64,000 nucleotides of DNA from an uncultured delta proteobacterium (lineage in GTDB: Bacteria > Desulfobacterota > Binatia > Binatales > Binataceae), in the NCBI GenBank assembly GCA_963808235.1, contig CAWEEQ010000004.1, positions 3,712,001 through 3,776,000 of the forward strand, read 5' to 3'. The translations under genes and the position numbers were made by a program. Positions 11,559-44,739 of this stretch are shown piece after piece. Under the pieces are notes generated by a model. It was not told the DNA's origin, did not search any database, and saw only the letters and a program-made list of their open reading frames with translations. Each line of letters begins with the position of its first letter. Position 1 is the first letter of the stretch.

Positions 11559-12512
11559 ATGAGCGACGCACTTCCGCTGCGCAACAGTCTCCGCTTCGGC
11601 ACGATGATCGGACTCTCGGACCGCGAGCACGCGATCCGTGTCGTCGAGTCGATTTCACGATGGGGCTACGAAGTGGTGTGGACCGGCGATCACGTCGCGT
11701 TCACCGGCCCGATAAGCGACCCGCTGATCCAGCTGACTTATCTCTCGGCGCTCGATCCCAAACTCATTTTCGGCACCAGCGTTTATCTGCTGCCGCTCCG
11801 TCATCCGACTACCGTCGCCAAGATGGTCGCGACGGTCGATCGAATGCTCGGCGCGGGACACTTTATCTTCGGCGTTGGCGTCGGCGGCGAGTTCCCGCGC
11901 GAGTACGAGGCTTGCGGCGTGCCGATCAAGGAACGCGGCGGACGCGCGACCGAGGCGATTCAGTTGATCAAGCGGCTATGGACCGAGCCGCGCGTCGAGC
12001 ATCGCGGCAAATATTTCAGCTTCGGCGAAATCAGCATGCAGCCGCGTCCCGCGACGCCGGGCGGCCCGCCCATCTGGGTCGGCGGTCGTGCGGAGGGCCC
12101 GCTGAAACGCGCCGCCCGATTCGGCGACGGCTGGATGCCCTACGTCGTAACCGCCAAGCGCTACGCCGACGGAATGGATTTCATCGGCAAGGAGGTCGAG
12201 CGCATCGGCCGCAAGCTCGCGACCTTCGGCACCTCGATCCATTTGTTTTGCACTCTGGGCGCGACCGTCGAAGCGGCCCACGAGGTCGCGACCGAGCATC
12301 TGAGCAAGCGCTATGCGATGGACTTTCGCGAGCCCGCGCGGCGCTACTCGGCACTCGGCCGTCCAGCCGACGTTGCGGCCAAGATCAGCGAGTACATCAA
12401 GGCGGGTGCCCGCGACATCGGCGTCGACGCAGTCTGCCATCCCTCAGACCGCGACGCCCAACTAGAGCAATTCGCGCGCGAGGTAATCCCGCTACTGCGA
12501 CCCTCCCAATAG
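11559..12512 (+). CDS. LLM-class flavin/F420-dependent oxidoreductase
   Basis: VWTGDHV, LPLRHP, GVGVGGE, PPIWVGG, RAARFGDGW. Confidence 0.9.
   Translation: MSDALPLRNSLRFGTMIGLSDREHAIRVVESISRWGYEVVWTGDHVAFTGPISDPLIQLTYLSALDPKLIFGTSVYLLPLRHPTTVAKMVATVDRMLGAGHFIFGVGVGGEFPREYEACGVPIKERGGRATEAIQLIKRLWTEPRVEHRGKYFSFGEISMQPRPATPGGPPIWVGGRAEGPLKRAARFGDGWMPYVVTAKRYADGMDFIGKEVERIGRKLATFGTSIHLFCTLGATVEAAHEVATEHLSKRYAMDFREPARRYSALGRPADVAAKISEYIKAGARDIGVDAVCHPSDRDAQLEQFAREVIPLLRPSQ
12416..12500 (+). repeat. Direct repeat copy 1 (3' end of the LLM gene)
   Basis: Matches 13608-13692 at 78/85 nt. Confidence 0.95.
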
Positions 12513-12673
12513 CCTCGGTTGCATAGCGCTCTAGTACAACAGCTGGCTGTCCCTACCGAAAACACTAGGCAACGACTTTTCTTCCACAGGGAGTCGTTTT
12601 GAGCCGTTTAGAGCCACTGGTTGCCGCAGAACCTCACTTTTGATACTCCAGTGCCGCGGGGGTTGCTTCACTG

Positions 12674-13519
12674 ATGAAAACAAGACGGTCCTTGGGTCTA
12701 TCGATCCTTGTTGCCACGTCGCTCGCGATCCTTCCATCGCCGCATGGCGCATCGGCGCAGGACGTGAACGCGATAGTTGGCCGGCGCGCCTACGTGCCGC
12801 ACATTTTCGTGCGCGGCGGTAGCTCCAAGAGGACGAATAAGAACCTCATCGATCACGGTGGCCCGGTGCTACCGACCTCGCACGTCTATGCCCTCTTCTG
12901 GGGCCCGGTGCCACCTGACATTTCCGGCGCACTGGACTCGTTCTTTGAAGGCTTTGGCGGCAGCAGCTACGCAAACATCTTGACCCAGTACATGCGCGGA
13001 GTTCCGCCCGCTCCGCCAGCGTCGACCTACATGGTCCTTGCTTCGGATTCTTCCGCGCCGCCGGCGCATGCGCCTGCCGTCAGCACGATCGTCAACGAGA
13101 TCTGCTCGTCGCTGGGTGGCGAGCCGCCGGATCCTACAGGCGTGTACTTTGTAATCACTTCAAACTTTCCCAAGGCGGCGAACTTTTGCGCTTGGCATGC
13201 AAAGGGAACCTGCAACGGCGATCCGATTGCGGTGGGCTATCTGCCAAACATCACCGGGGTCAGCGGATGCGGCGTCACCCCTCTAGGTTCCAACCCGTTC
13301 AGCAGCGGCGGTCAGGCGATGGCGAACGATGCGGCGCACGAGTTGTCGGAATCGATCACCGATCAATTGCTGAATGCCTGGTACGATTCGGGCGGACAGG
13401 AGGTCGGCGACAAATGCGAGACGCAATACGGCAGCCCAGTGACGATCAACGGAATCGAATGGCGGCTTCAGGAGGAGTGGTCGAACATGAACTCCGGCTG
13501 CGTTCAGTCGATTCCGTAG
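12674..13519 (+). CDS. Secreted Cys-containing protein, Phi-1/EXORDIUM-like
   Basis: Signal peptide; HGGPVL, FCAWH, AHELSESITD, GQEVGDKC, LQEEWSN...C. Confidence 0.7.
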   Translation: MKTRRSLGLSILVATSLAILPSPHGASAQDVNAIVGRRAYVPHIFVRGGSSKRTNKNLIDHGGPVLPTSHVYALFWGPVPPDISGALDSFFEGFGGSSYANILTQYMRGVPPAPPASTYMVLASDSSAPPAHAPAVSTIVNEICSSLGGEPPDPTGVYFVITSNFPKAANFCAWHAKGTCNGDPIAVGYLPNITGVSGCGVTPLGSNPFSSGGQAMANDAAHELSESITDQLLNAWYDSGGQEVGDKCETQYGSPVTINGIEWRLQEEWSNMNSGCVQSIP

Positions 13520-13552
13520 GCGCTGAACTTACTATAATGCGGTGGTGCCGGA

Positions 13553-13582
13553 GGTTGAGTCATTGGCAGCTCTGACTCAACC
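13553..13582. terminator. Hairpin with 10-bp perfect stem downstream of the islet gene
   Basis: GGTTGAGTCA-N10-TGACTCAACC; no clear U tract. Confidence 0.4.
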
Positions 13583-13607
13583 AAATTCATCTCGAGTCGG
13601 ACTGCGT

Positions 13608-13698
13608 CATCGGCGTCGACGCAGTCTGCCATCCCTCAGATCGCGACGCGCAACTCGAACAATTCGCGCGCGAGGTAATCCCGCTCCTTCGTCTTTGA
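13608..13698 (+). repeat. Direct repeat copy 2: displaced 3' end of the LLM gene with its own stop codon
   Basis: Encodes IGVDAVCHPSDRDAQLEQFAREVIPLLRL*; the first 28 aa are identical to the C-terminus of the LLM protein. Confidence 0.95.
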
Positions 13699-13716
13699 GT
13701 CCGACCTTGGCTTCAA

Positions 13717-14536
13717 TCACTCCTTGATGAACGCGAGCAGGTCGGCGTTGATCGTGTCGGCTTGCGTAGTAGGAATGCCGTGCGGAAAGCCCTTGTAGGT
13801 CTTAAGCCGCCCGTTTTTCAGCAGCTTCGCTGACAACGGCCCTGCATCAGCGTAAGGAACGATCTGATCGTCATCCCCATGCATTACAAGCACCGGCACC
13901 GTGATCTTTTTGAGATCGCCGGTGAAATCGGTCTGTGAGAACGCGACGATACCATCATAGTGAGCCTTCGCCCCGCCCATCATGCCCTGACGCCACCAGT
14001 TCTGGATAATTGCCTCGGAGGCTTTCACGCCCGGTCGGTTGAAGCCATAGAAAGGCCCGGCAGGCAGGTCGCGATAGAATTGCGAGCGATTAGCCGCGAG
14101 CTGTGCTTGCAATCCGTCGAACACTTCCTTGGGCAGGCCGCCCGGATTGGCCGCCGTCTTCACCATCAACGGCGGCACCGCACTTATCAGCGCTGCCTTC
14201 GCAACCCGGCTCTCGCCATGCCGTCCCAGGTAGTGCGCAACCTCGCCGCCGCCCGTCGAGTGACCTACATGCACGGCATTCTTCAAATCGAGATGCGCGG
14301 TAAGCGCCGCAAGATCGTCAGCATAATGATCCATGTCGTGACCGTCGCCTGTTTGCGTGGACCGGCCGTGCCCGCGGCGGTCATGGGCGATCACGCGATA
14401 GCCGTGATTCAAGAAGAAGAGCATTTGCGTGTCCCAGTCATCCGCCGACAGCGGCCATCCATGGCTGAACACGATGGGCTGTTCCCCAATCCTTGTAGAA
14501 GATCTCAACGCCGTCTTTGGTCGTGATAATAGGCAT
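13717..14536 (-). CDS. Alpha/beta hydrolase, non-heme chloroperoxidase family (apparent frameshift near 14481)
   Basis: The true N-terminus [18 protein letters not shown] follows the RBS AAGGAG, then [30 protein letters not shown] and GFPHG. Confidence 0.9.
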
Positions 14537-14702
14537 GGCATCGTCTCCTTACTTTAGTTTGTTGGATTATTGCCGCGTGGCGCGGCTGACGCCAATGTCG
14601 CTCCAGCGGACGCTCGCATGGCGTGAAGATACGCAAAAGAACGCAGGCAAGACTTCCGCACCAGAGAGATATAGCGCGACAGGACAGCTTGTTCATGTCC
14701 AT

Positions 14703-14736
14703 TATTAAACCGTAGTATATATTAAACCGTAGTATA
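14703..14736. repeat. 17-bp perfect tandem duplication
   Basis: TATTAAACCGTAGTATA twice, upstream of the protease gene. Confidence 0.9.
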
Positions 14737-14769
14737 ACTTGATCAAAAGAAAAAAGGGCGGTCAGGGCA

Positions 14770-15500
14770 GTGAAAGAGTGGCACCAAGTTGTCAGTTCAA
14801 TCTCCCCATCTGTAGTAAAGATTGAAACCCCTGATGGGCATGGGACCGGTTTCTTATGCGCATATAACGCAGACAAAACTTTAGTTGGGATCGCAACCGC
14901 TCATCACGTCGTTGGGCATGCCGACAAATGGCAGCAACCAATTCGTATTCACAATCTAACTAAAGACACAACAATTTTTCTTCAGGAAGCTGACCGCGTA
15001 ATTATTCCAGACTCCTTAAAAGATTCGGCGGTTATCATTATCTTCTCGGAAGCCCGAATAAAGGCGCTTGATCTTCCAGAGGAACCGATAGGTTTCATCG
15101 CCCCGGGGAAGCATTCCATCACAGGTGTTGAAGTAGGTTGGCTAGGTTATCCTAGTATTGACCGGATATTCTGTCCTTTTTTCGCGCTTCAGCGCGTGGC
15201 AAGCGGCCAGTACGCGTATCCCATCATGGCGTCGCTAGCAATGGCCAGCGGCAAGACCGGCTTAGGCGGTATCAAACGACGGCGCACCGCCTCGAATCAT
15301 TGGTTCGTCACTGCGGATAGCCCATCGGAATCAGAGCGACGGTTCCGGGGCTTTCGATTGCTCAAGAGTTACTCACTTCCAGAAAGTCATAACCATGCTT
15401 AAAACTAGGGATGAAGCTGAGCGCAAGAAAAAGGAACAAGAAGCCGCTGCTGCTGTAGCGCCGTTAGCCACGCCCAGACCCCGCCCCTCCACCAGCCAAA
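14770..15500 (+). pseudogene. Trypsin-like serine peptidase, scrambled between about 15170 and 15370 (pseudogene or consensus artefact)
   Basis: SPSVVKI, GTGF, ATAHHV, KDSAVI, LGYP. The catalytic-Ser region survives only as fragments (GVA.NG.SG, PRIIGS) spread over several frames. The end is approximate. Confidence 0.75.
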
Positions 15501-15546
15501 TCGGGCTGATTACCAAAGCCGCCCACTACCTGATATTCCGCGCTCC

Positions 15547-15662
15547 GCAATCTTCACCCTCAACTACTGCATGCCGCACGAGAACGATCTGCCAATCTAC
15601 ATATGCCGCAGCCCAAAGCAGCCGTTATGCGACCTATGGCGCGTGCCAAGTCCTTCGGCTGA
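15547..15662 (+). pseudogene. Orphan 3'-end fragment resembling the C-terminus of GT39/ArnT-like membrane glycosyltransferases
   Basis: Reads AIFTLNYCMPHENDLPIYICRSPKQPLCDLW, then with a 1-nt shift RAKSFG*. The family was recognised from memory. Confidence 0.5.
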
Positions 15663-15869
15663 CCCTGTCTGGTTCCCCGCCCGCCCGTCCTTCTCTGCTA
15701 TCTCGATCGAGTTGGGTATCGCCCTGCGTAAGTAGAAAGGCTTTCGCTCAACTGCGAACCCGAACTCCTAGACAGTCTTTACTTCGGCGCCTACTGCAAG
15801 TAGATCGAAAGGGACGACCCGTTAACAAAATGCTTAGGCTCGGAGGTTGTTTTTACGCTCTGAAAGCAG

Positions 15870-17129
15870 ATGGCCGGAGGAATCAATACTCATGAGGAGG
15901 AGGAATTGGCCGCATATTTCGCTAGCCATTTGCGGCACGGAACCTGGTGGGAGAACCTTCTAGGTCATCTGGACACCAGTCAGGATCTTGATCTCAATCT
16001 CGGAAAGTTCAAGATACCACTGCCGTTGAGGCTAGTTCGCCCTTTCTCCACGACTGTATTAATGCGTAGCGTGGCGAGGCGATGAATCGCGACGAGACCC
16101 CATCCAAGATATACGAGATCTGAGCAGGCTGCGCACTACGTTCGGCTTTTCAGATCTGACGCTGGCGGACTTTGCGCAGAAGATCCGCGAGCAATATACA
16201 GAAATTCAGCATGAGCACGCGCCGATGCCCGATGGGTGCAGAGGCAGGTCGCCCAAGCCAATCTGGCGAGTTCTCCGCCGGCAGAAAAGTCGTCGGAGCT
16301 GATCCAAGCAGCGATCGCTCTGAGGAACGGGAATCATCAGGCAGTTGGATTTCTCTCATTTGATCCGGTTGCCGCAATCAACCTGGCAGATGAAATCTCA
16401 CGCTCAGCTCTCCGGGCGGCGGGCCTAGCGGTATGTACCGTCTTTGGCGGCGAATGTCATTTCAGCGCGAACCTCATGATTCCGGTCGCTAGCGATTCAC
16501 CTTTACCTGAACCAGCACAGCATTCTGAAGCAGCAACGGTGCGCGCGCGTGCGGATCAACTATGGAGAGGCATCCATTCGGACCGCCGCTTGGTCGTTGT
16601 CAGTGAGACAGAGCGGGCCGGGCATCTCGGCTTCTGGGTTCCCACAGCCCACGGTCGCAACTCTAATATTCTGCCTGGCGCACCTCGCACATTTCTGCAG
16701 ATGTCTGGGAACGCCGTATTCAAGGGTGACCTACCCAAGATTGAAGGCTTTCCGGAGGAGGTCGGAAAAAGATGGGCAGGGTACATGGAAGAGCACTTTA
16801 CAGAGCGCCTTTTTGTGTCGCTCCCACTCTTGGTCCCAGCGTCTACGATTTCCGGGACCGGCTCGGCGGTCGCGGCGGTCGTCAATATCAATGCGTCGCC
16901 GCAAAACGAGGAACTCTGGTACCGTGCGTACCATGAAGAATGGTTGAAAATCGCACAAAACAGGGTAGCGGAGCTTGCGGAGATTGCGTTTTACGCCATG
17001 CTGGTTAAGTTTGAGGCCGAGATGGCGTTGGGTAGTTCCTCGATTCGTATTGACACGGGATGTAGGCTCTGGGATAGACTCCCCGTTGCCGAAGTAGAAC
17101 GACGCTTACCAGGACCCCGCGATGAATAG
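15870..17129 (+). CDS. Hypothetical protein with possible GAF-like C-terminal domain; N-terminal part broken by frameshifts (16060-16235)
   Basis: Track ORFs 15870-16085 and 16236-17129 are bridged by a protein-like frame (DPIQDIRDLSRLR...FAQKIREQY). FVSLPL...AVVNINA resembles GAF strands. Confidence 0.5.
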
Positions 17130-17307
17130 AACAAAGTCCGCTGTTGGCTCTCCGGCTTCCCGCAAGCTGGTCATGGCTGTCTTGAAGCACGAGGCGCATC
17201 AAGTCCTCAATGCTGCCAACGAGTCTATCGATCGCGCAGAAGAGGCAGCCGGTGCGCATCTCATTATTAAAACTGAATCTCGTACGCCGGAGCGATCCAG
17301 CGAATAG
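17122..17307 (+). CDS. Small hypothetical protein
   Basis: Overlaps the upstream stop and has an AGGA RBS; 61 aa. Confidence 0.5.
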   Translation: MNRTKSAVGSPASRKLVMAVLKHEAHQVLNAANESIDRAEEAAGAHLIIKTESRTPERSSE

Positions 17308-17485
17308 CTCCGCTGAAACGCTTCGGCCGCCTCGATTTTGAATCAGAGGCGTGAGAGGACTAGGTTAAACATGGCGCTCCGCGCAATGCAGGAGGCGAGC
17401 GATCTGGCCAGCACTGACCTGCTCACTCCGGAACCTTCCGCTCTCCCTTATCCATCGGGCCGGACTCATTGCCTTGCCGCGTGGT

Positions 17486-18172
17486 TTAGATCTTTCTTCC
17501 TTGGCGACACTCAAGTGATCGAGTTTTCAGGGGCCAGACGCGATCCCATCTTCCGTCATGCAGGCGCGGGAAGACCGGCTTGCGATACGGGCGCTTGAAA
17601 GGTGCGTCGGGATAGCCCATCGGAATCAGAGCGATCAGCTGATATTCCGCGGGCACCCCAAGGAGCGCTTTGGTCTCCGGCTCGCGGCTGGTCAGCATCG
17701 TGGTCATCGCGGTGCCGACTCCGAGCGCGCGCGCCGCGAGCATCATTAGTTCGATAGCGGGAAAGATCGAGCCGTAAGTCGCGCCGAAGTTGAACAGATC
17801 GTTGGCGCTGCCGCGCTCGACGCGCATCTTGGGGCGATTGAGAAATACCAGGACGTGAACCGGAACGACGGCGAGCTGCGCCGCGAACTCGTCGCCAGTG
17901 CGGAGAGCCTTGACCGCTCGCGGCGACAGCGTGGTGCGGCCGCGAATGATCGCGGAGTCTTTGTACGGCCCCCAGACCGCTTCGTAGAGGTGCTGGATCT
18001 CGCGGCGCATCTGAAGATCGCGCACCACGACGAACTCCCACGGCTGCGCATTGGAACCCGACGGCGCCATGTTGGCAGTCTCGAGGATTTTCACGAGCTC
18101 GTGCTCCGCGATCGGGCGATCGAGAAATCGTCGCATCGTAGGCGTTGAAGTGGCGACTTCGAAGAAATCCAT
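17486..18172 (-). CDS. Nitroreductase family protein
   Basis: MRRF, APSGSNAQPWEFVVV, LAARALGVG, IPMGYP. Confidence 0.92.
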   Translation of the reverse strand: MDFFEVATSTPTMRRFLDRPIAEHELVKILETANMAPSGSNAQPWEFVVVRDLQMRREIQHLYEAVWGPYKDSAIIRGRTTLSPRAVKALRTGDEFAAQLAVVPVHVLVFLNRPKMRVERGSANDLFNFGATYGSIFPAIELMMLAARALGVGTAMTTMLTSREPETKALLGVPAEYQLIALIPMGYPDAPFKRPYRKPVFPRLHDGRWDRVWPLKTRSLECRQGRKI

Positions 18173-18194
18173 CAGCGGCCTCCGCGATGACTAG

Positions 18195-19268
18195 CTAGAT
18201 CAATTCGATTGGGAAGTCCGAGCGAGGCGTGACCCGGCCGACGATTGCGGCGTCGCGATGCCCCGATTTTTGCAGCTCCGCGAGCAGCGCCAGGGCTTGC
18301 GCATCGGGGAGCGCAATCAGCAAGCCGCCCGAGGTCTGCGGATCGAAAGCCAGCTCCGCGATCTGTTCCGAAACTTCGTCCGAGATTCGCAAGCTTGGCG
18401 CGTAGTACTCCCGATTGCGCACGCCGCCGCCTGGAATCATTCCTGCGCCGGACAGTTCGAGCGCGTCCGGCAGAAGAGGCAGGTCGGACTCCTCGAACAC
18501 GATTGTCACGCCGCTGCCCTCGGCCATCTTGAGCGCATGACCAACCAGACCGAATCCAGTGACGTCCGTCGCCGCGTGAACGTCGAACTTGAGCATCGCG
18601 AGCGCGGCGTCGGCATTGAGCTGAACCATCGAGCGCACCGCGGCCTGGTACGCTTCATCGGCGAGCTTGTCGCGCTTGAACGCGGTCATCAGGATTCCGG
18701 TGCCGAGCGCCTTGCTCAGCACCAGCGCGTCGCCGACTCGCGCGCCGACGTTGCGCACGATTCGGCGCGGATCGATCACGCCGGTAATCGCCATCCCGAA
18801 CTTCACTTCCTCGTCGGCAACGGTGTGGCCGCCGACAATTACGACGCCGGCTTCGCGCGCCTTCTCTGCGGCGCCGCGCAGAATCTCGGACAGCATCTCG
18901 CCGGGTAATCCGGTCTGTGGCCAGCACACGATGTTCAGCGCGGTGCGCGGCACTCCGCCCATCGCATAGACGTCAGAGAGCGCGTTGGCGGCCGAGATTT
19001 GTCCGTACGTGAACGGATCGTCGACGATTGGGGTGAAAAAGTCGACGGTATTCACGATCGCGAGATCGTCGGAAAGACGGAACACTCCGGCGTCGTCGCC
19101 GGTGGAAATTCCGACCAGCAAATCAGGATGGCTCGGCAAGTCGAGCCGCGCGAGGACTGCGGAAAGGTCCGCCGGACCGAGCTTACCGGCTCAACCCGCA
19201 GCCTTGCACCGCGCCGTCAGGCGAATCAGATCGCCCCGCGAGGGATTGTTGTCCTTCGTTTTGGACAT
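18195..19268 (-). CDS. selD: Selenophosphate synthetase SelD, selenocysteine-containing (UGA at 19193-19191, codon 26)
   Basis: In-frame MSKTKDNNPSRGDLIRLTARCKAAG-U-AGKLGPADL continues into DDAGV, TVDFFTPIVDDP, GGHT, TDVTGFGL and DPQTSGGLL. Confidence 0.96.
19166..19178 (-). promoter_or_regulatory. Bacterial SECIS-like hairpin of selD
   Basis: GGUCC-GGC-GGACC starting 12 nt after the UGA, with G in the apical loop. Confidence 0.7.
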
Positions 19269-19342
19269 CGCGGCTATTGTCGCGCATCGCAGGGGTGAAG
19301 TCAGCGGGTATGGGATTCGGATTCAGACCGCTACGCGCGGGG

Positions 19343-19365
19343 CGGCAGGGGTGACCCCTGCACCC
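19343..19365. repeat. REP-like palindromic repeat
   Basis: CGGCAGGGGTGACCCCTGCACCC, identical to 53045-53067. Confidence 0.85.
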
Positions 19366-19539
19366 GGTGTCCATTCAATCGCAAAGCAGCCCACAGAGCG
19401 CGAACGCCATTTTGCTCTCGGCCGCCTGGAAGATTTAACCTTCGAAAAAGTGGGCTGACTCTGTAGCTGCGAGATCACTTCATCGAACAGGAGTGTTCAA
19501 CACGCTCTGAACGACGGAGGACCTTACCGCGGACCGCGG

Positions 19540-21471
19540 TTATGGATTCGGAGTGCGCAAGCGGCGGGCGTCGCCGACGCGGGTGGTGACGCCGGTGTGG
19601 TCGAAGTGATCGAGGAGGGCGATTGCGAACTTGCGCGAGGCGCCGAGGAGATCGCGGAAGATTGCGGCGGTGATTTCGGGGTGGGCTTTCAGATATTCGA
19701 CGAGGGTCTGGCGGGCGGCGTCAGAGGCGGCGCGGCTGAAGTATAGATCGGTCGCGATTTTCACCACCCGGCCCTCGCGTTCCATCGCGGCGAGTACGGT
19801 GCGCAGGCGTGGCAAATCGGCGGCGGAAAGTTTCAACGCATCGGCGAGTTGCTTGAGGTCGGGCGGCTGGAACTTTGCGCTGGTCAGTGCCGCCTCGATG
19901 CTTGCGCCCATGACGCTCGCGTCGCCACCGAGCTGGACGCGATGGCTTTTGAGCCGCACGATGCTCTCTTCGCGGACAATTCCCGCCTCGCGGCCGATAC
20001 GATCGATGATCGGGCGGAACGCGCGCGCGCCGATCTCGTAGGGCATCCGCGTGCGCATCGCTTCCATCTCGAGCCCTGCCGACAGCGGCTCCTTCTTGTG
20101 ATGAGTCTCGAGTGCGGAGAGCGCGAAGCGTTTCAACTCCTCCCATTTGGTCCGGGTGGTGAAAGCGTCTTCATCTCCGACTGATAGTTTGACGAAGCGC
20201 GGATCCTTGAGGGCGGTTTCGGCTTCCTGGATGGGAATGTTCATCAGGGTCGCGATTCGAACCGGGCCGAGCGCGAAACTTTCATTCAAATTAAGCAACG
20301 CTTCGATCGCGTCGGAGCCCGACGATTCCTTGAGTGCGCGGAGATTTGCGCGATACGCGTCGAACGGTTTGCGGGCGCGGCGTCCGAGCGGATTCAGCAC
20401 GATGCCGCCGCCGAGAGTGCGCGAATTGGTTTCGTCGCGGATGACGAAGCGGTCGCCAGCGAGCGCGACGACCGGCGTGTCCGCGACCAACTGTGCGAAG
20501 CCGGCGTCCTTGGGTGCGATCACGGCAGTTTCGTCGAGCACGATAGCGCGCGCGATCGTCTCGGCGGTCGCGATGAACAGACGCACGCGGCTGTTGTTCT
20601 TGAGTGCGCGCTTGGCGGCGGGACGAATTTCCAGCCACGCGTCGAAGCGCGAAGTCGCAGCGTCGAGCCGCTCATCGGCGAGTACGTCGCCGCGCGCGAG
20701 ATCGATTTTTTCTGCGCCGGTCAGATTCAACGCAACGCGCTGACATAGGCCCGCGCTTTCAACCGATTCTGAATGCACCTGGATCGATCGCACGCGCACT
20801 TCGTGGCCATAGGGCAGTACGCGGAGCCTAGCACCGACCTTGACCTCGGCGCCCATCGCGGTGCCGGTGACGACGGTGCCGTGTCCTTTGATTACAAACG
20901 CGCGATCGAGCGGAAGACGAAAGACTCCGGTCGCGCGACGGGCCTGAAAGCCGTCGAGCTGACGGACTATCTCGGCGCGCAGCTCGTCGATGCCAGCGCC
21001 GGTTATCGACGAGACGGGAATGATCGGCGAACCGTCCAGCGTAGTGCCGTCAGCGAGCAGCTCGATTTCGTCGCGGACTTCGCTGATGCGCGCAGAATCG
21101 GCAAGATCGGACTTGGTGATGACGAAGATGCCGCGGCGAGTGCCGAGTAGATGGAGGATGTCGAGATGCTCTTCGGATTGCGGCATCACGCCGTCGTCGG
21201 CGGCAATCGCGAAGAGCACCAGGTCGATGCCGTGCGCGCCGGCGAGCATGTTGCGGATGAAGCGCTCGTGCCCCGGAACGTCGACGATACCGGCGCGGGT
21301 GGCGTCGGGCAGGGTGAAGTAGGCGAAGCCGAGGTCGATCGAAATTCCGCGCTCCTTTTCCTCTTTGAGGCGGTCGGTGTCCTGGCCGGTGAGCGCTTTG
21401 ATGAGCGCGGTCTTGCCGTGATCGATATGACCAGCGGTGCCGATGATGGCGTGGGTGACCGTAGGAGCCAT
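19540..21471 (-). CDS. selB: Selenocysteine-specific translation elongation factor SelB
   Basis: [34 protein letters not shown], and the C-terminal winged helix [20 protein letters not shown]. Confidence 0.97.
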
Positions 21472-36562: not shown

Positions 36563-36580
36563 GTTTCTTGCCGACTGGTT

Positions 36581-36691: not shown

Positions 36692-37790
36692 ATGGCAATA
36701 GACATTATATACGGAGAACGAGTGACCGAGGGCGTCGAGGCGGACGCGAACACCGGTGGGCTGTGGCTGAACGGCGCCGACCTCGAGCGCGTCTCGGGCT
36801 GGACGCATAAGGCCGCAGGGATTCTGCAAGGGCGAGGTCTGCGTGCCGGTGCCGGCCGCGCGCCAAAGTGAGTTCGTTCACGGCGACGATTACAACCTGG
36901 CGGCGCTCGCGGAGATGCTCGGGCAGCCGATGGTCGCCGACGCGGAAAATCACGCGTACTGCTTTGGCGAGGCTGCGGACGAGCGCAAGCGAATCCTGAC
37001 CTCGCTCGACGCGCCGGATTTCAGCTTGCCCGATCTCGACGGCCGGACGCATTCGCTGTCGAAGTATCGCGGCAAAAAAGTTCTTCTCGTTTCATGGGCC
37101 TCGTGGTGAGGATGCCGCTTCGACCTGCCAGTCTGGCAGGCTCTTTACGAAGAACTCGGACCGAGTGGATTTGTGCCAATCGCGATCGCATTTGACAGCG
37201 GCGGCAATGCTGCCACCGAGCCGTGGATCAAGGCGGCCAAGCCCACTTATCCGTGCCTTATCGATCGACGCCACGTGGTCGCCGAGCTTTACGATATGGT
37301 CAATGTGCCGACCGCGGTCTGGATCGACGAGCGCGGCAAGATTGTCCGGCCGAGCGAGCCCGCGGGCGTGACCGACGCGTTCCGCAAGATGAATCGGACC
37401 AACTTTTCGATTCCTACCGACGCGATGAACGAGCTGCAGGCCAAGCGCAAAGCGTACCTCGATGCGCTTCGCGACTGGGTAGCGAAAGGCGCCAAGAGCA
37501 GGTTCGCGCTCGACGGGGCCGAGGTGCTCCGCCGGATGCATACTCCCGACGCCAAACAGGTGCGCGCCGCCGCAAACTTCCGGCTCGGCGAATATCTGTT
37601 CGAGCACGGCCACGCGGCTGCGGCGCAAAAGTATTTCGAAGAAGCGAAGCGGCTTCGTCCGGAGAGCTGGAATTACAAGCGCCAGGCATGGGCGCTCGAA
37701 GATCCGATGAAACCGGGCGGGCCCGAGTTCTGGGCCGCGGTCGATTCGCTCGGCGAAGGGAAATACTACCCCGGTGCCGAAGACATATAG
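36692..37790 (+). CDS. Selenocysteine-containing ResA/TlpA-like redoxin (WASW-U-GC motif; UGA at 37107-37109; apparent +1 frameshift near 36811)
   Basis: APDFSLPDLDGRTHSLSKYRGKKVLLVSWASW-UGA-GCRFDLPVWQ reads through in frame into ORF 37173-37790 (NVPTAVWIDERGKIVRP, then a TPR-like helix pair). Confidence 0.9.
37124..37140 (+). promoter_or_regulatory. Bacterial SECIS-like hairpin of the redoxin
   Basis: CCUGCCA-GUC-UGGCAGG, a 7-bp perfect stem 14 nt after the UGA with GU in the loop. Confidence 0.8.
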
Positions 37791-38679
37791 CAATCGCGAG
37801 ATCCTGGTCGTGGGATATGGATCGTTGCTGAGCGGATACGGCCTGCTCGCGCAGCGGCGCGGCGGGGCGAGCCGGCTAATCGCGCGCGACGTCGAGCGGG
37901 TCTCGATTCGTAACGCGCGGCGCGGACTCGCCAAGCCGTCGAGTCACGGCAGTTACCTCGCGATGGATATCGAACCGGTCGATCGACGAGCGTCGATTAC
38001 CGCATCGACTGGACTGGGCGGCGTCGGAATCGGCGGCCTGCTTCTGACTTTCGATCGCGAGTGCGCGCCGCTGATTGCGCGGCGCGAGGAATACGAGGCC
38101 GGCGCGTTCGAGCGGCTGATTGGGCTGGCCGATCGCGCGGGCGTCCCGCTCGGCGAATACCTGATGGAGCTCGCAAGCGGAACGAATTTCGATCTGCTCG
38201 CGTATCGAATCGCACTCCGCACGATGCTCGGCTACACGTCGCCCGGCTACATTTTCCATCCGATCCAAATCGACGACGGGCGTATCGCGATAATCGCGAT
38301 AGGGTCAGGATTTGAAGGGAGCGGAGATCCGCGGATTGTGTCGCGGCGCCAGCAATTCGGGATGGATCGACTGCTCACGCTCGACGAGGCGCTGCGGCTC
38401 GAAATTCCCGATTTCGACCGCGCCGGACAAATCGGCTACTACGCCGAATGTCTGCTCGGCGGACTGCACGGAGTGGCGGTCGGCGATCTCGCGAATCGGT
38501 TCGACCCGGACGCTCCGTGGCTGCGCGAGCTCGACGATCACTTCGCACGAGTGGCGAGTGGCGAGCGGGCAAGATTTATCGAGGCCACCTCTCTGGATGA
38601 CGCGCGTTACGAGGCAAGGTTTTCCAGCCGTCATGAAAACCTTGCCGCGCTTCTGAAAACCGCGAGCGTGGAACCATGA
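37774..38679 (+). CDS. Gamma-glutamylcyclotransferase-like protein
   Basis: N-terminal ILVVGYGSLLS and later ARREEY; overlaps both neighbours. Confidence 0.6.
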   Translation: MPKTYSNREILVVGYGSLLSGYGLLAQRRGGASRLIARDVERVSIRNARRGLAKPSSHGSYLAMDIEPVDRRASITASTGLGGVGIGGLLLTFDRECAPLIARREEYEAGAFERLIGLADRAGVPLGEYLMELASGTNFDLLAYRIALRTMLGYTSPGYIFHPIQIDDGRIAIIAIGSGFEGSGDPRIVSRRQQFGMDRLLTLDEALRLEIPDFDRAGQIGYYAECLLGGLHGVAVGDLANRFDPDAPWLRELDDHFARVASGERARFIEATSLDDARYEARFSSRHENLAALLKTASVEP

Positions 38680-39185
38680 CGACGCCTGTCGACTCGAAAT
38701 TTTCGATTCACGTGGCGAAGGAAAATCTGAAATTCTCCGCCGCGCATTTCATCGCCTATCCGGGATTCCGCGAGCCGCTGCATGGCCACAACTACCAGGT
38801 CGGTGTTTACGTCGAAGGCAAGCTCGCAAGCACCGGCTACGTGATCGATTTCGGGCTGATCAAAAAACTTACCAAAGAGATCGTCGATCGACTCGACGAG
38901 CGAACGATCATCCCGGCCAACAGCGATTGCCTGAAAATTGAAGGACCCAAGGACGGGAAGGTGCGAATCTTTTACGAGCGCGACGAGTTCGTGCTCCCCG
39001 CGGCCGACGTATGCCTGGTTCCGATCGTGCACAGCTCGGCGGAGGAACTCGCACGCTACATATGGAACGAGCTGGCGGCGGCGCTGATCGCACGCGGTGC
39101 ACTCAGGGAAGTGACGACGATGGAAATTTCAGTGGCCGAGGGTCCCGGCCAGTCGGCGCACTATCGCAGTCAGACCTCCTCCTAA
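38676..39185 (+). CDS. 6-pyruvoyl-tetrahydropterin synthase (COG0720) family, PTPS-III-type motif
   Basis: FSAAHF, REPLHGHNY (E-x2-HGH with no Cys), VIDFG, SSAEELA. Confidence 0.88.
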   Translation: MTTPVDSKFSIHVAKENLKFSAAHFIAYPGFREPLHGHNYQVGVYVEGKLASTGYVIDFGLIKKLTKEIVDRLDERTIIPANSDCLKIEGPKDGKVRIFYERDEFVLPAADVCLVPIVHSSAEELARYIWNELAAALIARGALREVTTMEISVAEGPGQSAHYRSQTSS

Positions 39186-39229
39186 GCTGAAGTTCATTCC
39201 GCGCGGGCGCAATTGCGATGGCGATCTCG
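39140..39229 (+). repeat. 90-bp direct repeat copy 1 (last 46 nt of the PTPS gene plus 44 nt downstream)
   Basis: Identical to 44650-44739. Confidence 0.98.
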
Positions 39230-39304
39230 TCGCCGCCCGAGAATCGCGGAGAAATTGACGCGGCGCCGCAGAAAATCCGGAAGATCGATCGACTCTCCGG
39301 AAAC

Positions 39305-39682
39305 TCAATCTCCTATTTTAATCGCTTCCGCGGTGCATGCGACTCTGGACCAACAGTCTCTAAGCAGCGCTCCCCCAGTGCCGCTCCCGCACGTGACGTT
39401 GGTGATCCCATTGGCGCTCATCGCGCCGGCTTTAGTCCGCAGTTGATCGGTCACGCCTTGCTCGGTTGGTTGATCGTCCCACAGAGCGAATTTGCATGCG
39501 CTGGCATCGATCGGCCCGAGCGTAGTGTATTTGAGACTGGCGAGATCGCCGGGTTGATACACTTTCACCTGTGCGGTCTGCTCAGGTACCACAGGAATGC
39601 CTTCCCGCAAATTGCAGCCCGCGACGACCACTACCAATAGTCCAGTACTCAATCCAGACAACATATTTTTGTAGCTAATCAT
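39305..39682 (-). CDS. RcsF-like lipoprotein
   Basis: Lipobox VAGC; VKVY...LGPIDASAC...LRTKAGAMSANGITNVTC...DCWSRVACTAEAI reproduces the four-Cys RcsF pattern. Confidence 0.7.
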   Translation of the reverse strand: MISYKNMLSGLSTGLLVVVVAGCNLREGIPVVPEQTAQVKVYQPGDLASLKYTTLGPIDASACKFALWDDQPTEQGVTDQLRTKAGAMSANGITNVTCGSGTGGALLRDCWSRVACTAEAIKIGD

Positions 39683-40147
39683 CGCTAACCTCGAATTTCC
39701 GTTTTTGAAACCGGATTCATTCGCATCAAGACCACGCGTTTGAAAACACAAAGTTGGAGCCCGGATTTGATTCCAAATACTTTGCAGGGCACCGCACCCG
39801 GCGCGTTCTGCCTCGCCTTGGTAAAAGAACACCGAAACTGGTGGCTTTCCTCTCTGAATTGTTTATTCCCCGCCGTGGGAATATGGCTCGGAGTGTGACA
39901 CTCGCGCAAGCGAAACAGTCCGTAAGGGCTACCGTTGAAAGGAGAAACTGAATCTAGACGCCTCTTCGCTTGCCGGCGGGCTGGCCGGATGCGTGTACGC
40001 GCCGCATAAACTTGACGCTCATTTTCGAGCCTTGCGACGCGAAAAAGCTAAATATATAAGGCGTTGCACGTATAGACCGTCAAGAGGTGTCCTAGTACAC
40101 TGCCACTGGCGTTGCATTACGCTCGGCTCTGAAGTCTTTACAGGGAC

Positions 40148-43100
40148 ATGCGCTGTCTATCGTGCGGATACGAAAATCCGCCGGACCGCGAGGGGTTCTG
40201 CGGAAAATGTGGCGCATCCTTGGCCGCCACACCGTTCTCCACGTCGACTATCCGCCCGCAAGCAGCCCGGCCGCCATCACTTTCTTTCGGCTCAGGCCGC
40301 TATCGCGCGATTCGTCTGCTTGGCGAAGGCAGCAACAAGAGAGTCTACCTGGCCCGCGACACCAGTCTCGATCGCGACGTGGCCATCGCGGTCCTCAGGA
40401 CCGAAGGACTCGACGAGGCGGGATGCGCACGTGTCCGCCGCGAGGCGCGGGCCATGGCCAGGCTCGGTGACCATCCAAATGTCGTCACGGTCTACGATGT
40501 CGGCGAAGAAAATGGCCAGCCATTCATCGTCAGCCAGTACATGGCTGGAGGCACGGTCGAAGATTTACTGGCCCGGTCGGCGAATCACCGCTTGCCGGTT
40601 GATCAGGTGCTGAAAATCGCGCTCGAAGCCTGCGAGGCTTTGGGACACTCGCATTCGTGCGGCATCGTTCATCGCGATTTCAAACCGGGAAACATCTTTC
40701 TGACCCAGGACGGCAAGTGCAAACTGGGTGACTTCGGCCTCGCCCTAACGATTGGCCAATCGCGCCTGACGGCAGTCAACATAATCGTCGGCACGGTTAG
40801 TTACATGCCACCCGAAGGAATTCTTGGCAAGCCGCTCGACGCGCGCGGCGATCTCTACTCACTTGGGGCCACCCTATACGACATGATAACCGGCCAGCCG
40901 CCCTTCGTGGGCGATGACCTGCGGACGATTCTGGCCCAACATGTCAACAGGGAGCCAGTGCCCCCGTCAACGCTCGCTCCCGGAACGCCCCGCGCGCTAG
41001 ACGAAATCGTCCTGACACTTCTGAAAAAGGACCCCGCAGAACGGCCCCCGAACGCGACCGCAGTGCGAAACAGGCTGCGGATGCTGGCGGCCTCGCCGAA
41101 GACTTCGATGGAGTTGCTGGCGTCCAGCGTGATGCTGGAACGCCCAAATCTGGGCCTCCACCTAGCCCTGGGCGGAACGTACAGCATCCTGTTTTCGGAC
41201 ATAGAGAATTCGACCGCGATGAACGAGGCGCTCGGCGACCAGAAATTTCACGAAGTGCTTCAAATGCACAATTCGATCATCCGCGGGCAGGTCGAAAGTC
41301 ACGGCGGCTTTGAAGTCAAGTCAATGGGCGACGGATTCATGATCACATTCTCGAGCACGCGGCAAGCGCTGGAATGCGCGATCGGCATCCAGCGACAGCT
41401 CGCGGCCTACAGTGATCAGCATCCGAGACAGCCTATCCGCGTCCGAATCGGACTGCACGTTGGCGAGGCGATCAAGGAGGGCCGCGACTTCTTCGGCAGA
41501 AGCGTGAATATGGCCGCGCGGATCGGGGCCAAGGCTCAAGGCGGTACGATCCTGGTGTCTTCGACGTTCAAGGAAGTGACCGAGGGCAGCGGCGGCTTCC
41601 GCTTCGATCACGGCCGCGCGTTTGAACTGCAGGGCTTTTCGGGAATCCATCGCCTTTACCAAGTGGCCTGGCGGGATGAAGAACGCACCTGTCCCAATTG
41701 CTCGAAGCGAATTTCTGCATCATCTCACTCCTGTCCGAATTGTTCGATCTTGTTGCCCGCGATGCCATTTTCGACGCCTCCGGCACCGGACGAGGAGGTG
41801 CCGGCGGGCATCTGTAAGAAATGCGGCCGTGGGATTCCCGTCGATGCGCGCTTTTGTCCGTACTGCAGTGCTGACTTGACGCCACGTCCCGCGATAGTGC
41901 TCGAAGCCGACCAAGCCGCGGATCTTCAGCCAGATCCTGTCGCGCCGGCGTTGGTGCTCGGCGAGGGACAAGCCGCTGGTTTTCAGCATGGTCCTATCGC
42001 GTCTGGCCGAGCGGGGCGTGCATCAACACTTTTGGCGATTGGAGCGATCAGCATTTTCATTACCGCAATCGGCTTCACCGCAACCTACTACTACAAGGAC
42101 ACTTATCTGCCACGGCAGCGGGCGGCGGCCGAAGCTCGTGCCAAGACCGAGAAGGAGGCACAGGCGCAAGCCGCCGCGCAGGAAGCTGAAAGGGCAAAGA
42201 CGGCAGCAGCGACCGAGCAGACGCGACGCAAGGCTGCGGCGCAGCAACAGGCGGCCGCAGAGGAGCACTATGCGAAGTTGAACGTTCAGCTCGAGAAGGC
42301 TGTCGCCGCGGTCCGGCACGCGAAGGCGGGAAGCGAGGCGGAGAAACAGTTTCGCGAGAATGCGATCTCAATTGCGCTCCAGATGAATCCGCCGCCGGCG
42401 ATTCCAGAAGCGGCGCGCCAGCTGCTCAGCGAGGGTGATGGCACGATGAGTCGCGCAACGACCACCTTCGACTATAACGCGGCAGCCGAAAAATATCGCC
42501 GCGCGCTCTGGCTCGCACCATGGCTCGCCTCAGGCTATCAACGATTGGCTCAGGCCGAAGAGAAAGCCGGCAATCTGGAAGCGGCGGTCGGAGCGCTGAA
42601 CTACTGTAGCGCGGGGGTGCGCGACGCTTCGGCCCGCGCAGAGGTACTCAAGAAGGTTGTGGCGATCCAAGCCCAGATCGGAACATTGAAGAAAGAAGCT
42701 GAACTCAAACAAGAGGCGGAGGCGCAGGCCAGGCTCGAAGCATCGAAGAAGGAAGCCGAGCTCAAGCGACAGGCCGACGCACAGGCCAAGCTCGAAGCAT
42801 CGAACAAAGAAGCGGACCTCAAGAGACAGGCTGAAGCGCAGGCCAGGCTCGAAGCTTTGAAGAAGAATTCTGGGGAAGAACAATCCGACGAAAAGGGGAA
42901 TGACAAATCAGCCGAGAGCTCCAACCAAGCTTCTACGGAGCCGAAGTCTGGCGGTCCCCAAGTGCAAGCCGAGCCGAAACCAAAGCCGGAACCCTCTGAC
43001 CAAACCGCTCCTTGCGCCGCCGCTCTTGCGAGCAGGGACTACGCGGCGGCGCTGTCGTCATGTTCGACGGCCGCAGCCCAAGGTGATTCGCACGCGGAGA

Positions 43101-43489
43101 GCAACCTTGGCGTCATGTACCAAAACGGGCTCGGGGTGCCCAAGGACAACGCTGAGGCGCTCAACTGGTACCTCAAGGCGGCGGCCCAGGGGAACGCGGC
43201 TGCTCAGAATTCCTTGGGCGACGTGTACCTATACGGAGTCGGAGCACGGCAGAATTATATAGAAGCGCTGGACTGGTATCAGAAAGCCGCCAGGCAGGGC
43301 GTGGCGAATGCAATGTTCTCTCTGGGCTACATGTACGAGCAGGGTTTGGGTGTCGGGGTGGACAACACGCGGGCCGTTGAATGGTATCAAAAGGCCGCGA
43401 AGCTGGGCTCCGCTGAGGCGAAGAAACGGCTTGGTTCCGGAACCATTCCAAGCAACCCCGCAGTCTACACCAGCGATCCTTCGCCATGA
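40148..43489 (+). CDS. Multidomain protein: zinc ribbon, Ser/Thr kinase, class III adenylate cyclase, two double zinc ribbons, TM helix, TPR/coiled coil, Sel1 repeats
   Basis: HRDFKPGN, DFG, GTVSYMPPE; LFSDIENST, KSMGDG, DFFGRSVNMAAR; CxxC pairs; TM helix near nt 42030-42090; three NLGVMYQNG-type Sel1 repeats. Confidence 0.92.
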   Translation: MRCLSCGYENPPDREGFCGKCGASLAATPFSTSTIRPQAARPPSLSFGSGRYRAIRLLGEGSNKRVYLARDTSLDRDVAIAVLRTEGLDEAGCARVRREARAMARLGDHPNVVTVYDVGEENGQPFIVSQYMAGGTVEDLLARSANHRLPVDQVLKIALEACEALGHSHSCGIVHRDFKPGNIFLTQDGKCKLGDFGLALTIGQSRLTAVNIIVGTVSYMPPEGILGKPLDARGDLYSLGATLYDMITGQPPFVGDDLRTILAQHVNREPVPPSTLAPGTPRALDEIVLTLLKKDPAERPPNATAVRNRLRMLAASPKTSMELLASSVMLERPNLGLHLALGGTYSILFSDIENSTAMNEALGDQKFHEVLQMHNSIIRGQVESHGGFEVKSMGDGFMITFSSTRQALECAIGIQRQLAAYSDQHPRQPIRVRIGLHVGEAIKEGRDFFGRSVNMAARIGAKAQGGTILVSSTFKEVTEGSGGFRFDHGRAFELQGFSGIHRLYQVAWRDEERTCPNCSKRISASSHSCPNCSILLPAMPFSTPPAPDEEVPAGICKKCGRGIPVDARFCPYCSADLTPRPAIVLEADQAADLQPDPVAPALVLGEGQAAGFQHGPIASGRAGRASTLLAIGAISIFITAIGFTATYYYKDTYLPRQRAAAEARAKTEKEAQAQAAAQEAERAKTAAATEQTRRKAAAQQQAAAEEHYAKLNVQLEKAVAAVRHAKAGSEAEKQFRENAISIALQMNPPPAIPEAARQLLSEGDGTMSRATTTFDYNAAAEKYRRALWLAPWLASGYQRLAQAEEKAGNLEAAVGALNYCSAGVRDASARAEVLKKVVAIQAQIGTLKKEAELKQEAEAQARLEASKKEAELKRQADAQAKLEASNKEADLKRQAEAQARLEALKKNSGEEQSDEKGNDKSAESSNQASTEPKSGGPQVQAEPKPKPEPSDQTAPCAAALASRDYAAALSSCSTAAAQGDSHAESNLGVMYQNGLGVPKDNAEALNWYLKAAAQGNAAAQNSLGDVYLYGVGARQNYIEALDWYQKAARQGVANAMFSLGYMYEQGLGVGVDNTRAVEWYQKAAKLGSAEAKKRLGSGTIPSNPAVYTSDPSP
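42689..42859 (+). repeat. Intragenic 57-bp (19-aa) tandem repeat, 3 copies
   Basis: KKEAELKQEAEAQARLEAS / KKEAELKRQADAQAKLEAS / NKEADLKRQAEAQARLEAL. Confidence 0.9.
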
Positions 43490-43652
43490 CGTGAAGAAAT
43501 CTCTCGCGATTTTGTTCAGCCGAGCTTCAGAAGATCAAACGGTTTACTTGCAGCTAGCCCGCCGTCTGCCACTGTTGACACGTCTAAAGCGCGGTGACAG
43601 GATGTTTGCCGTTTCCGCCGTTTCGTCAGCAATTCAAGTCCGGGGGGAGTTT

Positions 43653-44102
43653 ATGAAGCGGTATCTCGTATTCCTTGTGGCTGTGCTTGGGTTGCAGAGC
43701 CATGGATGTGCTTCGATATTTTGGGGTACTCACCAGGATCTCTCCATTGACAGCACGCCAAGTGGGACGCTCGCCAGTCTCTCCGATGGACAGAGCTGTA
43801 CAACGCCATGCAAAGTTCGAATTTCGCGAGGAACCACATATGCGATCAAATTTTCGAAGGACAACTGTGTTGGCCAGACTGAAATGGTCTCCAGCACTGT
43901 ATCAGGGGGTGCAATGGCAGTTTCCTTGATAGGAATCCCGGCGGGTACAATCATTGATTACATGGACGGCGCTGTTTACAGCGCTGACCCAAATCCAGTG
44001 AGTTCCTCGCTTGAATGCAAGCTCCCGTCAGTAGCTAATGCTCCTGCACCTGAAGCTCCGGCGATACTTCCTACAAAAGCTTCGGCCTCTACCTCGCCCT
44101 AG
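43653..44102 (+). CDS. PEGA-like lipoprotein, paralog 1
   Basis: MKRYLVFLVAVLGLQSHGCAS...SIDSTPSG...CTTPC; RBS GGGGAG. Confidence 0.8.
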   Translation: MKRYLVFLVAVLGLQSHGCASIFWGTHQDLSIDSTPSGTLASLSDGQSCTTPCKVRISRGTTYAIKFSKDNCVGQTEMVSSTVSGGAMAVSLIGIPAGTIIDYMDGAVYSADPNPVSSSLECKLPSVANAPAPEAPAILPTKASASTSP

Positions 44103-44152
44103 ACTTCGCGATTGATCCCAAGACCGAAGAGAATTCGGCCCAAGGAGTATCC

Positions 44153-44608
44153 ATGAAGAGACTTCTTGTATGCCTTGTCGCCGTGCTGGGACTGCTGAAT
44201 CATGGATGCGCTTCAGCTATTAGAGGAACTAGCGAAGACCTTTCCATCGAGAGCACACCGAATGCCGCGGTTGCAACTCTTTCTGACGGACAAACTTGTA
44301 CCACACCCTGCACGTTGCGAATTTCAAGAGGAAAAGCTTACGACGTCAAATTTTCAAAAAGCGGCTGCATCGACCAGACTGAAGTCGTTCAACCACATGC
44401 CTCGGGCAGTGGAGTAGCGGAAGCCCTTTTCCCGTTGTTGACCTATTCTCTGGTAGTCGATTCGATGAACGGAGCCATTTACGACGCCAAACCAAATCCC
44501 GTGACTTCGAACCTTCAATGTATGCCCTCATCTGAGCCCACCTTTTTGGCCCCGGTGACTTCATCGGCGTCCGCTCCCAAAGCCGCTGCGTCTGATTTGC
44601 CAAAGTGA
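44153..44608 (+). CDS. PEGA-like lipoprotein, paralog 2
   Basis: MKRLLVCLVAVLGLLNHGCAS...SIESTPNA...CTTPC; collinear with paralog 1. Confidence 0.8.
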   Translation: MKRLLVCLVAVLGLLNHGCASAIRGTSEDLSIESTPNAAVATLSDGQTCTTPCTLRISRGKAYDVKFSKSGCIDQTEVVQPHASGSGVAEALFPLLTYSLVVDSMNGAIYDAKPNPVTSNLQCMPSSEPTFLAPVTSSASAPKAAASDLPK

Positions 44609-44649
44609 TCTTCTTCATCCCCGCGGTCAACGAGTCGACCCAACTCTTC

Positions 44650-44739
44650 GGGTCCCGGCCAGTCGGCGCACTATCGCAGTCAGACCTCCTCCTAAGCTGA
44701 AGTTCATTCCGCGCGGGCGCAATTGCGATGGCGATCTCG
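44650..44739 (+). repeat. 90-bp direct repeat copy 2
   Basis: Identical to 39140-39229. Confidence 0.98.

Follow-up and report, generated by a model that had tools for sequence, protein, structure and literature searches.

Cargo islets between long direct duplications of gene ends, without recombinase genes, in the genome of an uncultured soil bacterium of the Binataceae

Most bacterial gene gain takes place at hotspots devoid of mobile-element genes, and the route by which the DNA entered is rarely visible. We analysed a stretch of 64,000 nucleotides (nt), hereafter called the window, from an uncultured delta proteobacterium of the family Binataceae, in which two segments of cargo DNA are each enclosed by a direct repeat of the 3′ end of a host gene. 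The genes concerned encode a luciferase-like monooxygenase (LLM; locus 1) and a 6-pyruvoyl-tetrahydropterin synthase (PTPS; locus 2), and the arrangement of gene end, cargo and second copy of the gene end is called an islet in the following. The window corresponds to G000:C4:3712001-3776000, where G000 is the source genome (4.59 Mb in 4 contigs, 60% GC, 93% complete), C stands for a contig and other G labels for comparison genomes; the sequencing runs holding parts of the window are soil metagenomes. This type of scar is already known, and what is new is its frequency in one genome.

Among the described systems, cis-mobilizable elements (CIMEs) are similar in being integrase-less DNA between attL and attR sites, within which lies the target gene's 3′ end (PMC5704250). 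Integration and transfer genes are expected to be absent from such elements, and no recombinase family was found in the islet cargo. However, CIMEs derive from integrative and conjugative or integrative and mobilizable elements with a known integrase family and shared attachment (att) sites, and neither such parents nor such sites were found here. The H47 genomic island of Escherichia coli excises and integrates without a recombinase of its own and without homologous recombination (PMC3191183). Like the islets, it is a small island with extensive imperfect direct repeats and no recombinase of its own, but its mobility was shown by experiment, whereas the islets are known from their sequence and lie at many unrelated sites. 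PMC2884548 argues that much small-scale diversity stems from illegitimate and homology-assisted recombination, and the flanking repeats in its survey were mostly shorter than 30 bp, so that the long and frequent duplications found here stand out.

The islets resemble transposable elements in the direct target duplication around the insert, but they have neither a transposase nor terminal inverted repeats, and their duplications measure 48-121 nt. Bacterial insertion sequences, for their part, leave target duplications of about 2-14 nt. Islands that target tRNA genes also differ, the 64-kb window being free of tRNA genes (a first-pass annotation of this DNA had likewise noted no tRNA target), and the islands at tRNA-Leu(CAA) in G000 and its relative G006 carrying no integrase. 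Campbell-type insertion-duplication gives the same end product (target segment, insert, target segment), but it is mainly a matter of laboratory tools, plasmids and phages, and natural circles with targets of 50-120 nt are only hypothetical here. Homology-facilitated illegitimate recombination (HFIR) is reportedly found in naturally transformable bacteria. It is likewise recombinase-free, in that homology anchors one end of the foreign DNA and the other end is joined illegitimately, and would explain the insert at the LLM gene of the relative G012 and possibly locus 1. On the other hand, it demands a donor that carries the cargo beside the anchor gene, which is not so in any relative for the islets at the acyl-CoA dehydrogenase (ACAD), AhpC and polA genes; neither was the window cargo found beside LLM or PTPS in another genome. 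The G012 insert, which opens with a nitroreductase 3′ fragment of the orthologous locus, does agree with such a donor. The usual outcome of HFIR is deletion of recipient DNA and not a duplication of 50-120 nt.

Duplicated gene ends at two loci of the window

At locus 2 the PTPS gene (38676-39185, forward strand; Pfam PF01242) is intact and has its native stop codon. The first repeat copy (39140-39229, forward) covers the final 43 nt of its coding sequence, its stop codon and the next 44 nt downstream, and an orphan second copy lies at 44650-44739 on the same strand. The two copies of 90 nt are 100% identical, and a self-BLAST across the 4.59-Mb genome returned exactly two of them (E 1e-36). 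The 5420 nt of cargo enclosed between them (39230-44649) hold four open reading frames (ORFs): an RcsF-like lipoprotein ORF on the reverse strand (39305-39832, a weak match), a Ser/Thr kinase of 1113 aa with cyclase, Zn-ribbon and Sel1 domains (40148-43489) and two weak PEGA-domain ORFs (43308-44102 and 44153-44608). The gene of a sigma-54 activator (44837-45940, forward; PF00158), which is the native downstream neighbour of PTPS, follows the orphan copy.

The PTPS gene is directly followed by the activator gene in 21 of 24 genus genomes, one other (G014) having a different 5-kb block at this place and two being uninformative; the unpublished genome G023 is counted among the empty sites here as well as at ACAD. 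For G019, which is the closest relative with 86% identity at the nt level, the alignments of the left and right flanks overlap by 92 nt (G019:C32:14476-14567), so that the single G019 copy corresponds to both copies of G000. Furthermore, 80 metagenome contigs contained a PTPS orthologue; the activator was located 30-161 nt downstream in 67 of them and 11 ended too early, the site being empty in 67 of 69 informative loci and occupied by different DNA without a repeat in the other two. Judged by these alignments, locus 2 is an insertion relative to its relatives. As a unit its cargo was not found in 46 genus genomes, and the best homologues of the kinase among 400 class genomes reached 52-59% protein identity. 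An exact 41-nt piece of the repeat gave no match in the metagenome contigs. Read data came from four soil runs of one study, in the form of short Logan contigs at a depth of 2-5, and among these contigs no bridging of a repeat junction and no empty-site or circular joint was seen; one contig of 193 nt stops at 39229, with 11 further letters unplaced. As a separate observation, the kinase-cyclase-Sel1 gene contains three tandem repeats of 57 nt (19 codons; 42668-42865, 77-80% identity) that encode a charged, coiled-coil-like segment.

The LLM gene of locus 1 (11559-12512, forward; PF00296, E 1e-46) carries the gene-attached repeat copy at 12412-12499, and the orphan copy is located at 13604-13691, both on the forward strand. 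The repeat is 88 nt long with 92% identity, the starts at 12416 and 13608 given in the first-pass annotation reflecting a stricter boundary, and it again occurs exactly twice in the genome (self-BLAST E 7e-26). The first copies at the two loci are thus the 3′ ends of the LLM and PTPS genes, and the two repeats are unrelated in sequence, both as that annotation had described them. The cargo of locus 1 (12500-13603, forward) comprises one gene followed by a hairpin. This gene (12674-13519, forward; 281 aa) belongs to no Pfam family, its N-terminus looks by eye like a signal peptide, and homologues with 68-74% nt identity were found at other loci of G052, G008, G049, G006 and G055.

The LLM genes of the relatives (12 of 12 aligned) terminate in ..L-(S/R/T)-L-stop. 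This ancestral tail is found on the orphan copy (..LLRL, stop codon at 13686-13688), and the working gene ends in a new ..LLRPSQ-stop; by this comparison the native C-terminus was therefore displaced rather than regenerated. The idea that such insertions serve to regenerate C-termini found no support at LLM, where the tail changed from RL* to RPSQ*, and regeneration is better taken as a by-product. The two copies differ in six synonymous codons and one boundary codon, and at four of six polarised positions it is the gene-attached copy that has the derived state, each time synonymously. This pattern points to an allele brought in by the donor or to allelic exchange at a later time; the derived gene-attached copy is compatible with a homologous border, and a later exchange would give the same picture. 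Duplication in situ followed by neutral decay was considered as the sole history of locus 1 and rejected, as the gene copy under selection bears four of five changes.

Close direct repeats across the genome

A genome-wide screen was carried out for repeats of 45-250 nt with at least 85% identity, in which direct and inverted pairs were compared. It returned 1618 short repeat pairs, 38 of which were unique two-copy pairs. Where the copies of a unique pair lay 250-15,000 nt apart, 15 pairs were direct and none inverted; below 250 nt there were five direct pairs and again no inverted one, and among pairs far apart or on different contigs nine were direct and nine inverted. The expected recurrence of the layout beyond chance was therefore borne out, with 15 of 15 close unique pairs being direct. 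The spectrum of exact repeat lengths, direct against inverted, was swamped by tandem paralogues and repeat proteins and was left unused.

Five of the 15 close pairs duplicate the 3′ end of a protein gene with the orphan downstream (LLM, PTPS, ArsA-like ATPase, ACAD and AhpC), one the 3′ 56 nt of tRNA-Leu(CAA) (C4:112379/118178) and two a gene 5′ end or upstream region (polA and FtsX-type permease), five are intergenic only and two are adjacent paralogues; gene positions outside the window are approximate, as they come from a crude codon-usage gene caller. Cargo is thus placed at a gene end in 8 of 15 pairs. A route aimed at gene 3′ ends in particular, as had been proposed, does not agree with the same layout at two 5′ ends and at a tRNA. 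One of the intergenic pairs (C4:1109732/1111124) marks a rearrangement breakpoint and not a simple insertion.

The prediction of empty sites in relatives at the repeat boundaries came true at PTPS, ACAD, AhpC and polA. At ACAD, overlapping alignments of the flanks were obtained in 31 of 46 genus genomes, from a listing read by eye. The AhpC cargo was missing in five of five genomes, three of them with an overlap of 105-125 nt, and four of five genomes overlapped by 47-54 nt at the islet upstream of polA. Boundaries were approximate at the remaining two islets, where the cargo was missing in five of five genomes (ArsA-like) or G019 was the sole informative genome (FtsX-type permease). In all, at least eight scars that can be dated by repeat identities of 85% to 100% lie in this one uncultured soil genome, five of them with clean empty sites. 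Over 12 events the duplication lengths ranged from 48 to 121 nt, and no motif common to the repeats or their boundaries was visible by eye in these 12 events.

The distribution of changes between the copies was informative at two further islets. At AhpC, 13 changes were found on the orphan, including all eight non-synonymous ones, and four synonymous changes on the gene copy; at ACAD the numbers were four on the orphan and one on the gene copy. In sequence terms both patterns match a duplication at the time of insertion followed by neutral decay of the orphan.

We also listed the enzymes that could take part. The genome has five matches to the tyrosine recombinase family PF00589, one of them a fragment and two others taken as Xer-type from their size and score, and none to the serine recombinase family PF00239. 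There is one match for Ku, two for the LigD primase-polymerase domain, one of which lies beside Ku, and one for ComEC. On contig C2 (186135-195821), three direct repeats of 140-240 nt (73-95% identity), 5.4 and 2.4 kb apart, lie beside a tyrosine-recombinase gene; this array has the appearance of ordinary tandem accretion at a tRNA-free attachment site, and its repeats are unrelated in sequence to those of the islets. Two dispersed short elements were noted in addition on C4, at about 1649707-1649785 (some 70-80 nt) and about 670520-670702 (some 100-180 nt); both have many copies of 80-97% identity, occur in five of five relatives searched and have a REP-like (repetitive extragenic palindromic) or MITE-like (miniature inverted-repeat transposable element) look.

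Cargo, relatives and the variable LLM spot

No integrase or transposase was found in the 18 called proteins or in the 52 cargo frames scanned against Pfam (of 73 stop-to-stop frames with 45 aa or more, the 21 shortest were dropped), and the cargo ends have no terminal inverted repeats, in agreement with the first reading of the window. Genome-wide, 0 of 33 proteins in or around the islets was a recombinase. The islets of 0.8-1.9 kb are taken up by one or two intact genes and contain no pseudogene remnants. The view that all cargo is exported or belongs to the envelope is plausible at the two window loci (signal peptide by eye, weak RcsF and PEGA matches) but did not extend to other islets, whose cargo consists of hemerythrin and NnrS at ACAD, a TylF-type methyltransferase at AhpC, a deaminase at polA and, elsewhere, HEAT-repeat proteins.

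The genes of the ACAD, AhpC and polA islets are present at other loci in relatives with 81-86% nt identity. For the islet methyltransferase, nt identity to a G019 gene in a conserved context elsewhere is 81%, and the own methyltransferase of G000, which sits in the conserved context, has only 72% aa identity to the islet copy, so that the islet gene was acquired from outside the genome. Intragenomic copy-paste was rejected as a source of cargo: 6 of 12 cargo blocks had no match elsewhere in the genome and the other six only distant ones, the closest being that of the AhpC cargo (72% aa), and no cargo had a close second copy. At the AhpC junction, with a relative serving as stand-in for the donor, the cargo gene is truncated about 15 nt before its end, and microhomology amounts to at most a few bases. 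In G008 a 54-nt direct repeat resembling a tRNA 3′ end (G008:C6:352700-353052) was seen just upstream of the hemerythrin-NnrS pair that is islet cargo in G000.

Two relatives show independent events. In G012 a separate duplication of 109 nt (98% identity) of the LLM 3′ end surrounds 2.8 kb of other cargo, in the order resident nitroreductase gene, patatin gene, LLM 3′ fragment, nitroreductase 3′ fragment, new cargo and LLM gene. The nitroreductase fragment that opens this cargo is 94-96% identical to the resident gene, so that the insert clearly derives from a close relative's orthologous locus. In G014 the spacer between PTPS and the activator (G014:C65:3500-10500) contains a SmaI-type restriction-modification pair followed by a block in which a 90-nt direct repeat (83%) encloses an IS1595 transposase and a DUF3800 gene. 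This repeat lies just upstream of the activator and, mapped by eye, covers a segment neighbouring but not the same as that of the G000 repeat, which argues against one fixed attachment site. Islands of 5-6 kb are present at tRNA-Leu(CAA) in G000 (C4:112379-118261) and G006 (C1:2115179-2120342); the former carries a MetA-type porin and a PAS histidine kinase, the latter a FecR/Ig-like repeat protein of 1130 aa. No repeat was found at this tRNA in G017.

The LLM islet is part of a spot that is variable in the genus. LLM and the convergent nitroreductase gene (in G000 at 17486-18172, reverse; PF00881) are at most 281 nt apart in at least 11 of 40 genus genomes, and other DNA of 1.6-6 kb separates them in six genus genomes; four of these inserts were scanned and proved to contain a patatin-like gene, a PMT_2 glycosyltransferase, or both patatin and DUF2130 genes. 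A patatin-like gene of about 1000 aa fills this spacer in at least three species (G053:C4, G012:C2 and G042:C11). In G000 the interval of 5 kb is composed of the islet, the orphan repeat, an alpha/beta hydrolase gene as a further acquired gene (13717-14541, reverse; PF00561) and a low-GC (47-58%) filler without a parent gene in the genome (14550-17485). The hydrolase gene is 89% identical to G041:C36:126261-127110, an unrelated locus, whereas for the LLM gene and nearby core genes the identity to G041 is about 77%, which suggests a recent exchange of the hydrolase gene within the genus. Another orphan 3′ end had been placed at 15547 in the filler; this could not be upheld, as tBLASTx of 14400-17500 against the whole genome matched only itself and a Pfam scan of the frames around 15547 gave nothing but a weak trypsin-like match (E 0.04) at 14743-15399. 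The part at 14550-16200 has 47-55% GC, contains that trypsin-like frame in degraded form and no intact gene, and is probably a decaying foreign insert.

Origin and meaning of the duplications

With moderate confidence, we read the repeats as target duplications that arise when host repair or recombination inserts foreign DNA, no recombinase encoded by the element being involved. Foreign pieces of 0.8-5.5 kb, often from related lineages of the genus, would be inserted by the cell's own machinery, and the primary events would most likely be illegitimate joins. Such a join might come from Ku/LigD end joining with fill-in of staggered ends, or from a template switch during replication that, on returning, lands 50-120 nt behind the position it had left. 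Homology may have assisted in some cases, by a crossover in a conserved flanking gene together with one illegitimate joint or, alternatively, by a single crossover with a circularised fragment; the G012 fragment and the derived copy at locus 1 are evidence for this sub-route, as far as their sequences tell. Inserts would survive only where neither neighbouring gene was broken, and this is why the duplicated segment nearly always holds a gene end. With about 88% of the genome coding (crude gene calls) and a duplication of 50-120 nt, selection plus geometry would explain the position at gene ends. What had been suggested at first, a general gene-capture route behind ordinary genes, is thus kept in its recurring layout, its precise empty sites, its cargo without recombinase and its independent events in G012 and G014, and given up in its preference for 3′ ends and its regeneration of C-termini.

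Several points weigh against this reading. The copies at locus 2 are 100% identical, and no contig of the read data bridges their junctions. Donor molecules were never seen, and microhomology or a homologous anchor is unprovable at both window loci. To our knowledge, and in the literature searched, no bacterial end-joining or template-switch process gives duplications of 50-120 nt together with kilobase inserts. The LLM boundary of G012 falls about 1-5 nt from that of G000 with different cargo, and the 3′ 53-56 nt of tRNA-Leu(CAA) are duplicated in both G000 and G006, again with different cargo. Recurring boundaries of this kind are what site-specific recombination predicts, and a trans-acting recombinase is for this reason retained among the rivals. 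Finally, the lengths of the repeats possibly form clusters, one near 50 nt and one near 80-120 nt, which could hint at a ruler; the spread could also reflect the 45-nt detection floor and the instability of long repeats.

The repeats might instead be the attL and attR sites of small integrative elements whose site-specific recombinase acts in trans or was lost, in the manner of CIMEs or H47, a possibility that we regard as unlikely. It would account for the near-identical boundaries with different cargo at the LLM 3′ end (G000 and G012) and at tRNA-Leu(CAA) (G000 and G006), and the gene-attached copy of locus 1, foreign-looking and with a substitute tail, is what an element-borne surrogate 3′ end would look like. 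The genome also holds an integrase beside the 140-240 nt repeat array on C2, and precedents exist in CIMEs (PMC5704250) and the H47 island (PMC3191183). However, at least eight unrelated repeats need as many specificities, to be set against only three non-Xer PF00589 matches, one of them a fragment. No integrase-bearing element was present at the PTPS site in the 24 genus genomes and 69 informative metagenome loci, nor at the LLM site in the five occupied relatives examined; integrase-bearing relatives at the same sites were not encountered, the G014 block consisting of a restriction-modification system and an IS1595 transposase. The repeat in the PTPS spacer of G014 covers a different segment, and the islets of 0.8-1.9 kb are full of intact genes with no pseudogene remnants. 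More doubtful still is a chromosomal activity acting in trans that would cut DNA with a stagger of about 50-120 nt and insert unrelated DNA there, leaving long target duplications. It would fit because all 15 close repeats are direct, the lengths possibly cluster and the LLM and tRNA-Leu boundaries recur; if true, it would be a gene-capture system acting at many unrelated sites without an element-borne recombinase.

Cassettes that ride on RecA, with recombination between the repeats freeing a one-copy circle that re-integrates by a single crossover in another strain, are rather improbable in our estimate. The islet structure is exactly that of Campbell-type insertion-duplication, the G012 layout is the one expected from a circularised orthologous fragment after one crossover, and the differences at locus 1 and ACAD are for the most part synonymous, which fits donor and recipient alleles. 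Against this, wherever relatives possess the ACAD, AhpC and polA cargo it adjoins other genes, so that a first non-homologous event is still needed. Repeats of 85-88% identity are poor substrates for RecA, no islet was found a second time at the same site in another genome, and neither a circle junction nor an excised allele was seen in the short Logan contigs. That locus 2 arose in assembly, through the threading into the contig of a separate molecule with 90 nt in common with the chromosome, seems very improbable: the identity of its copies and the lack of a bridging read or contig in the shallow Logan data would agree with it, but the fourteen other close direct pairs are 85-98% identical and so not creatable by an assembler, and the 4.59 Mb came in only 4 contigs. 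Scarcely credible is a history without insertion, by local tandem duplications and then deletions or by loss of the cargo in relatives. Tandem duplication also yields close direct repeats, and 2 of the 15 pairs are indeed adjacent paralogues; nevertheless almost every relative lacks the cargo at the site, the boundaries coincide exactly with the repeats, no second cargo copy lies nearby, and many independent precise losses would be required.

If the islets result only from ordinary illegitimate and homology-assisted recombination, as we favour, their value lies in an estimate of its frequency and not in a new mechanism. They pose a concrete question to repair biology, namely the source of duplications of 50-120 nt. 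They also provide a countable signature, unique close direct repeats without an inverted counterpart, which could serve to gauge recombinase-independent gene capture in different genomes.

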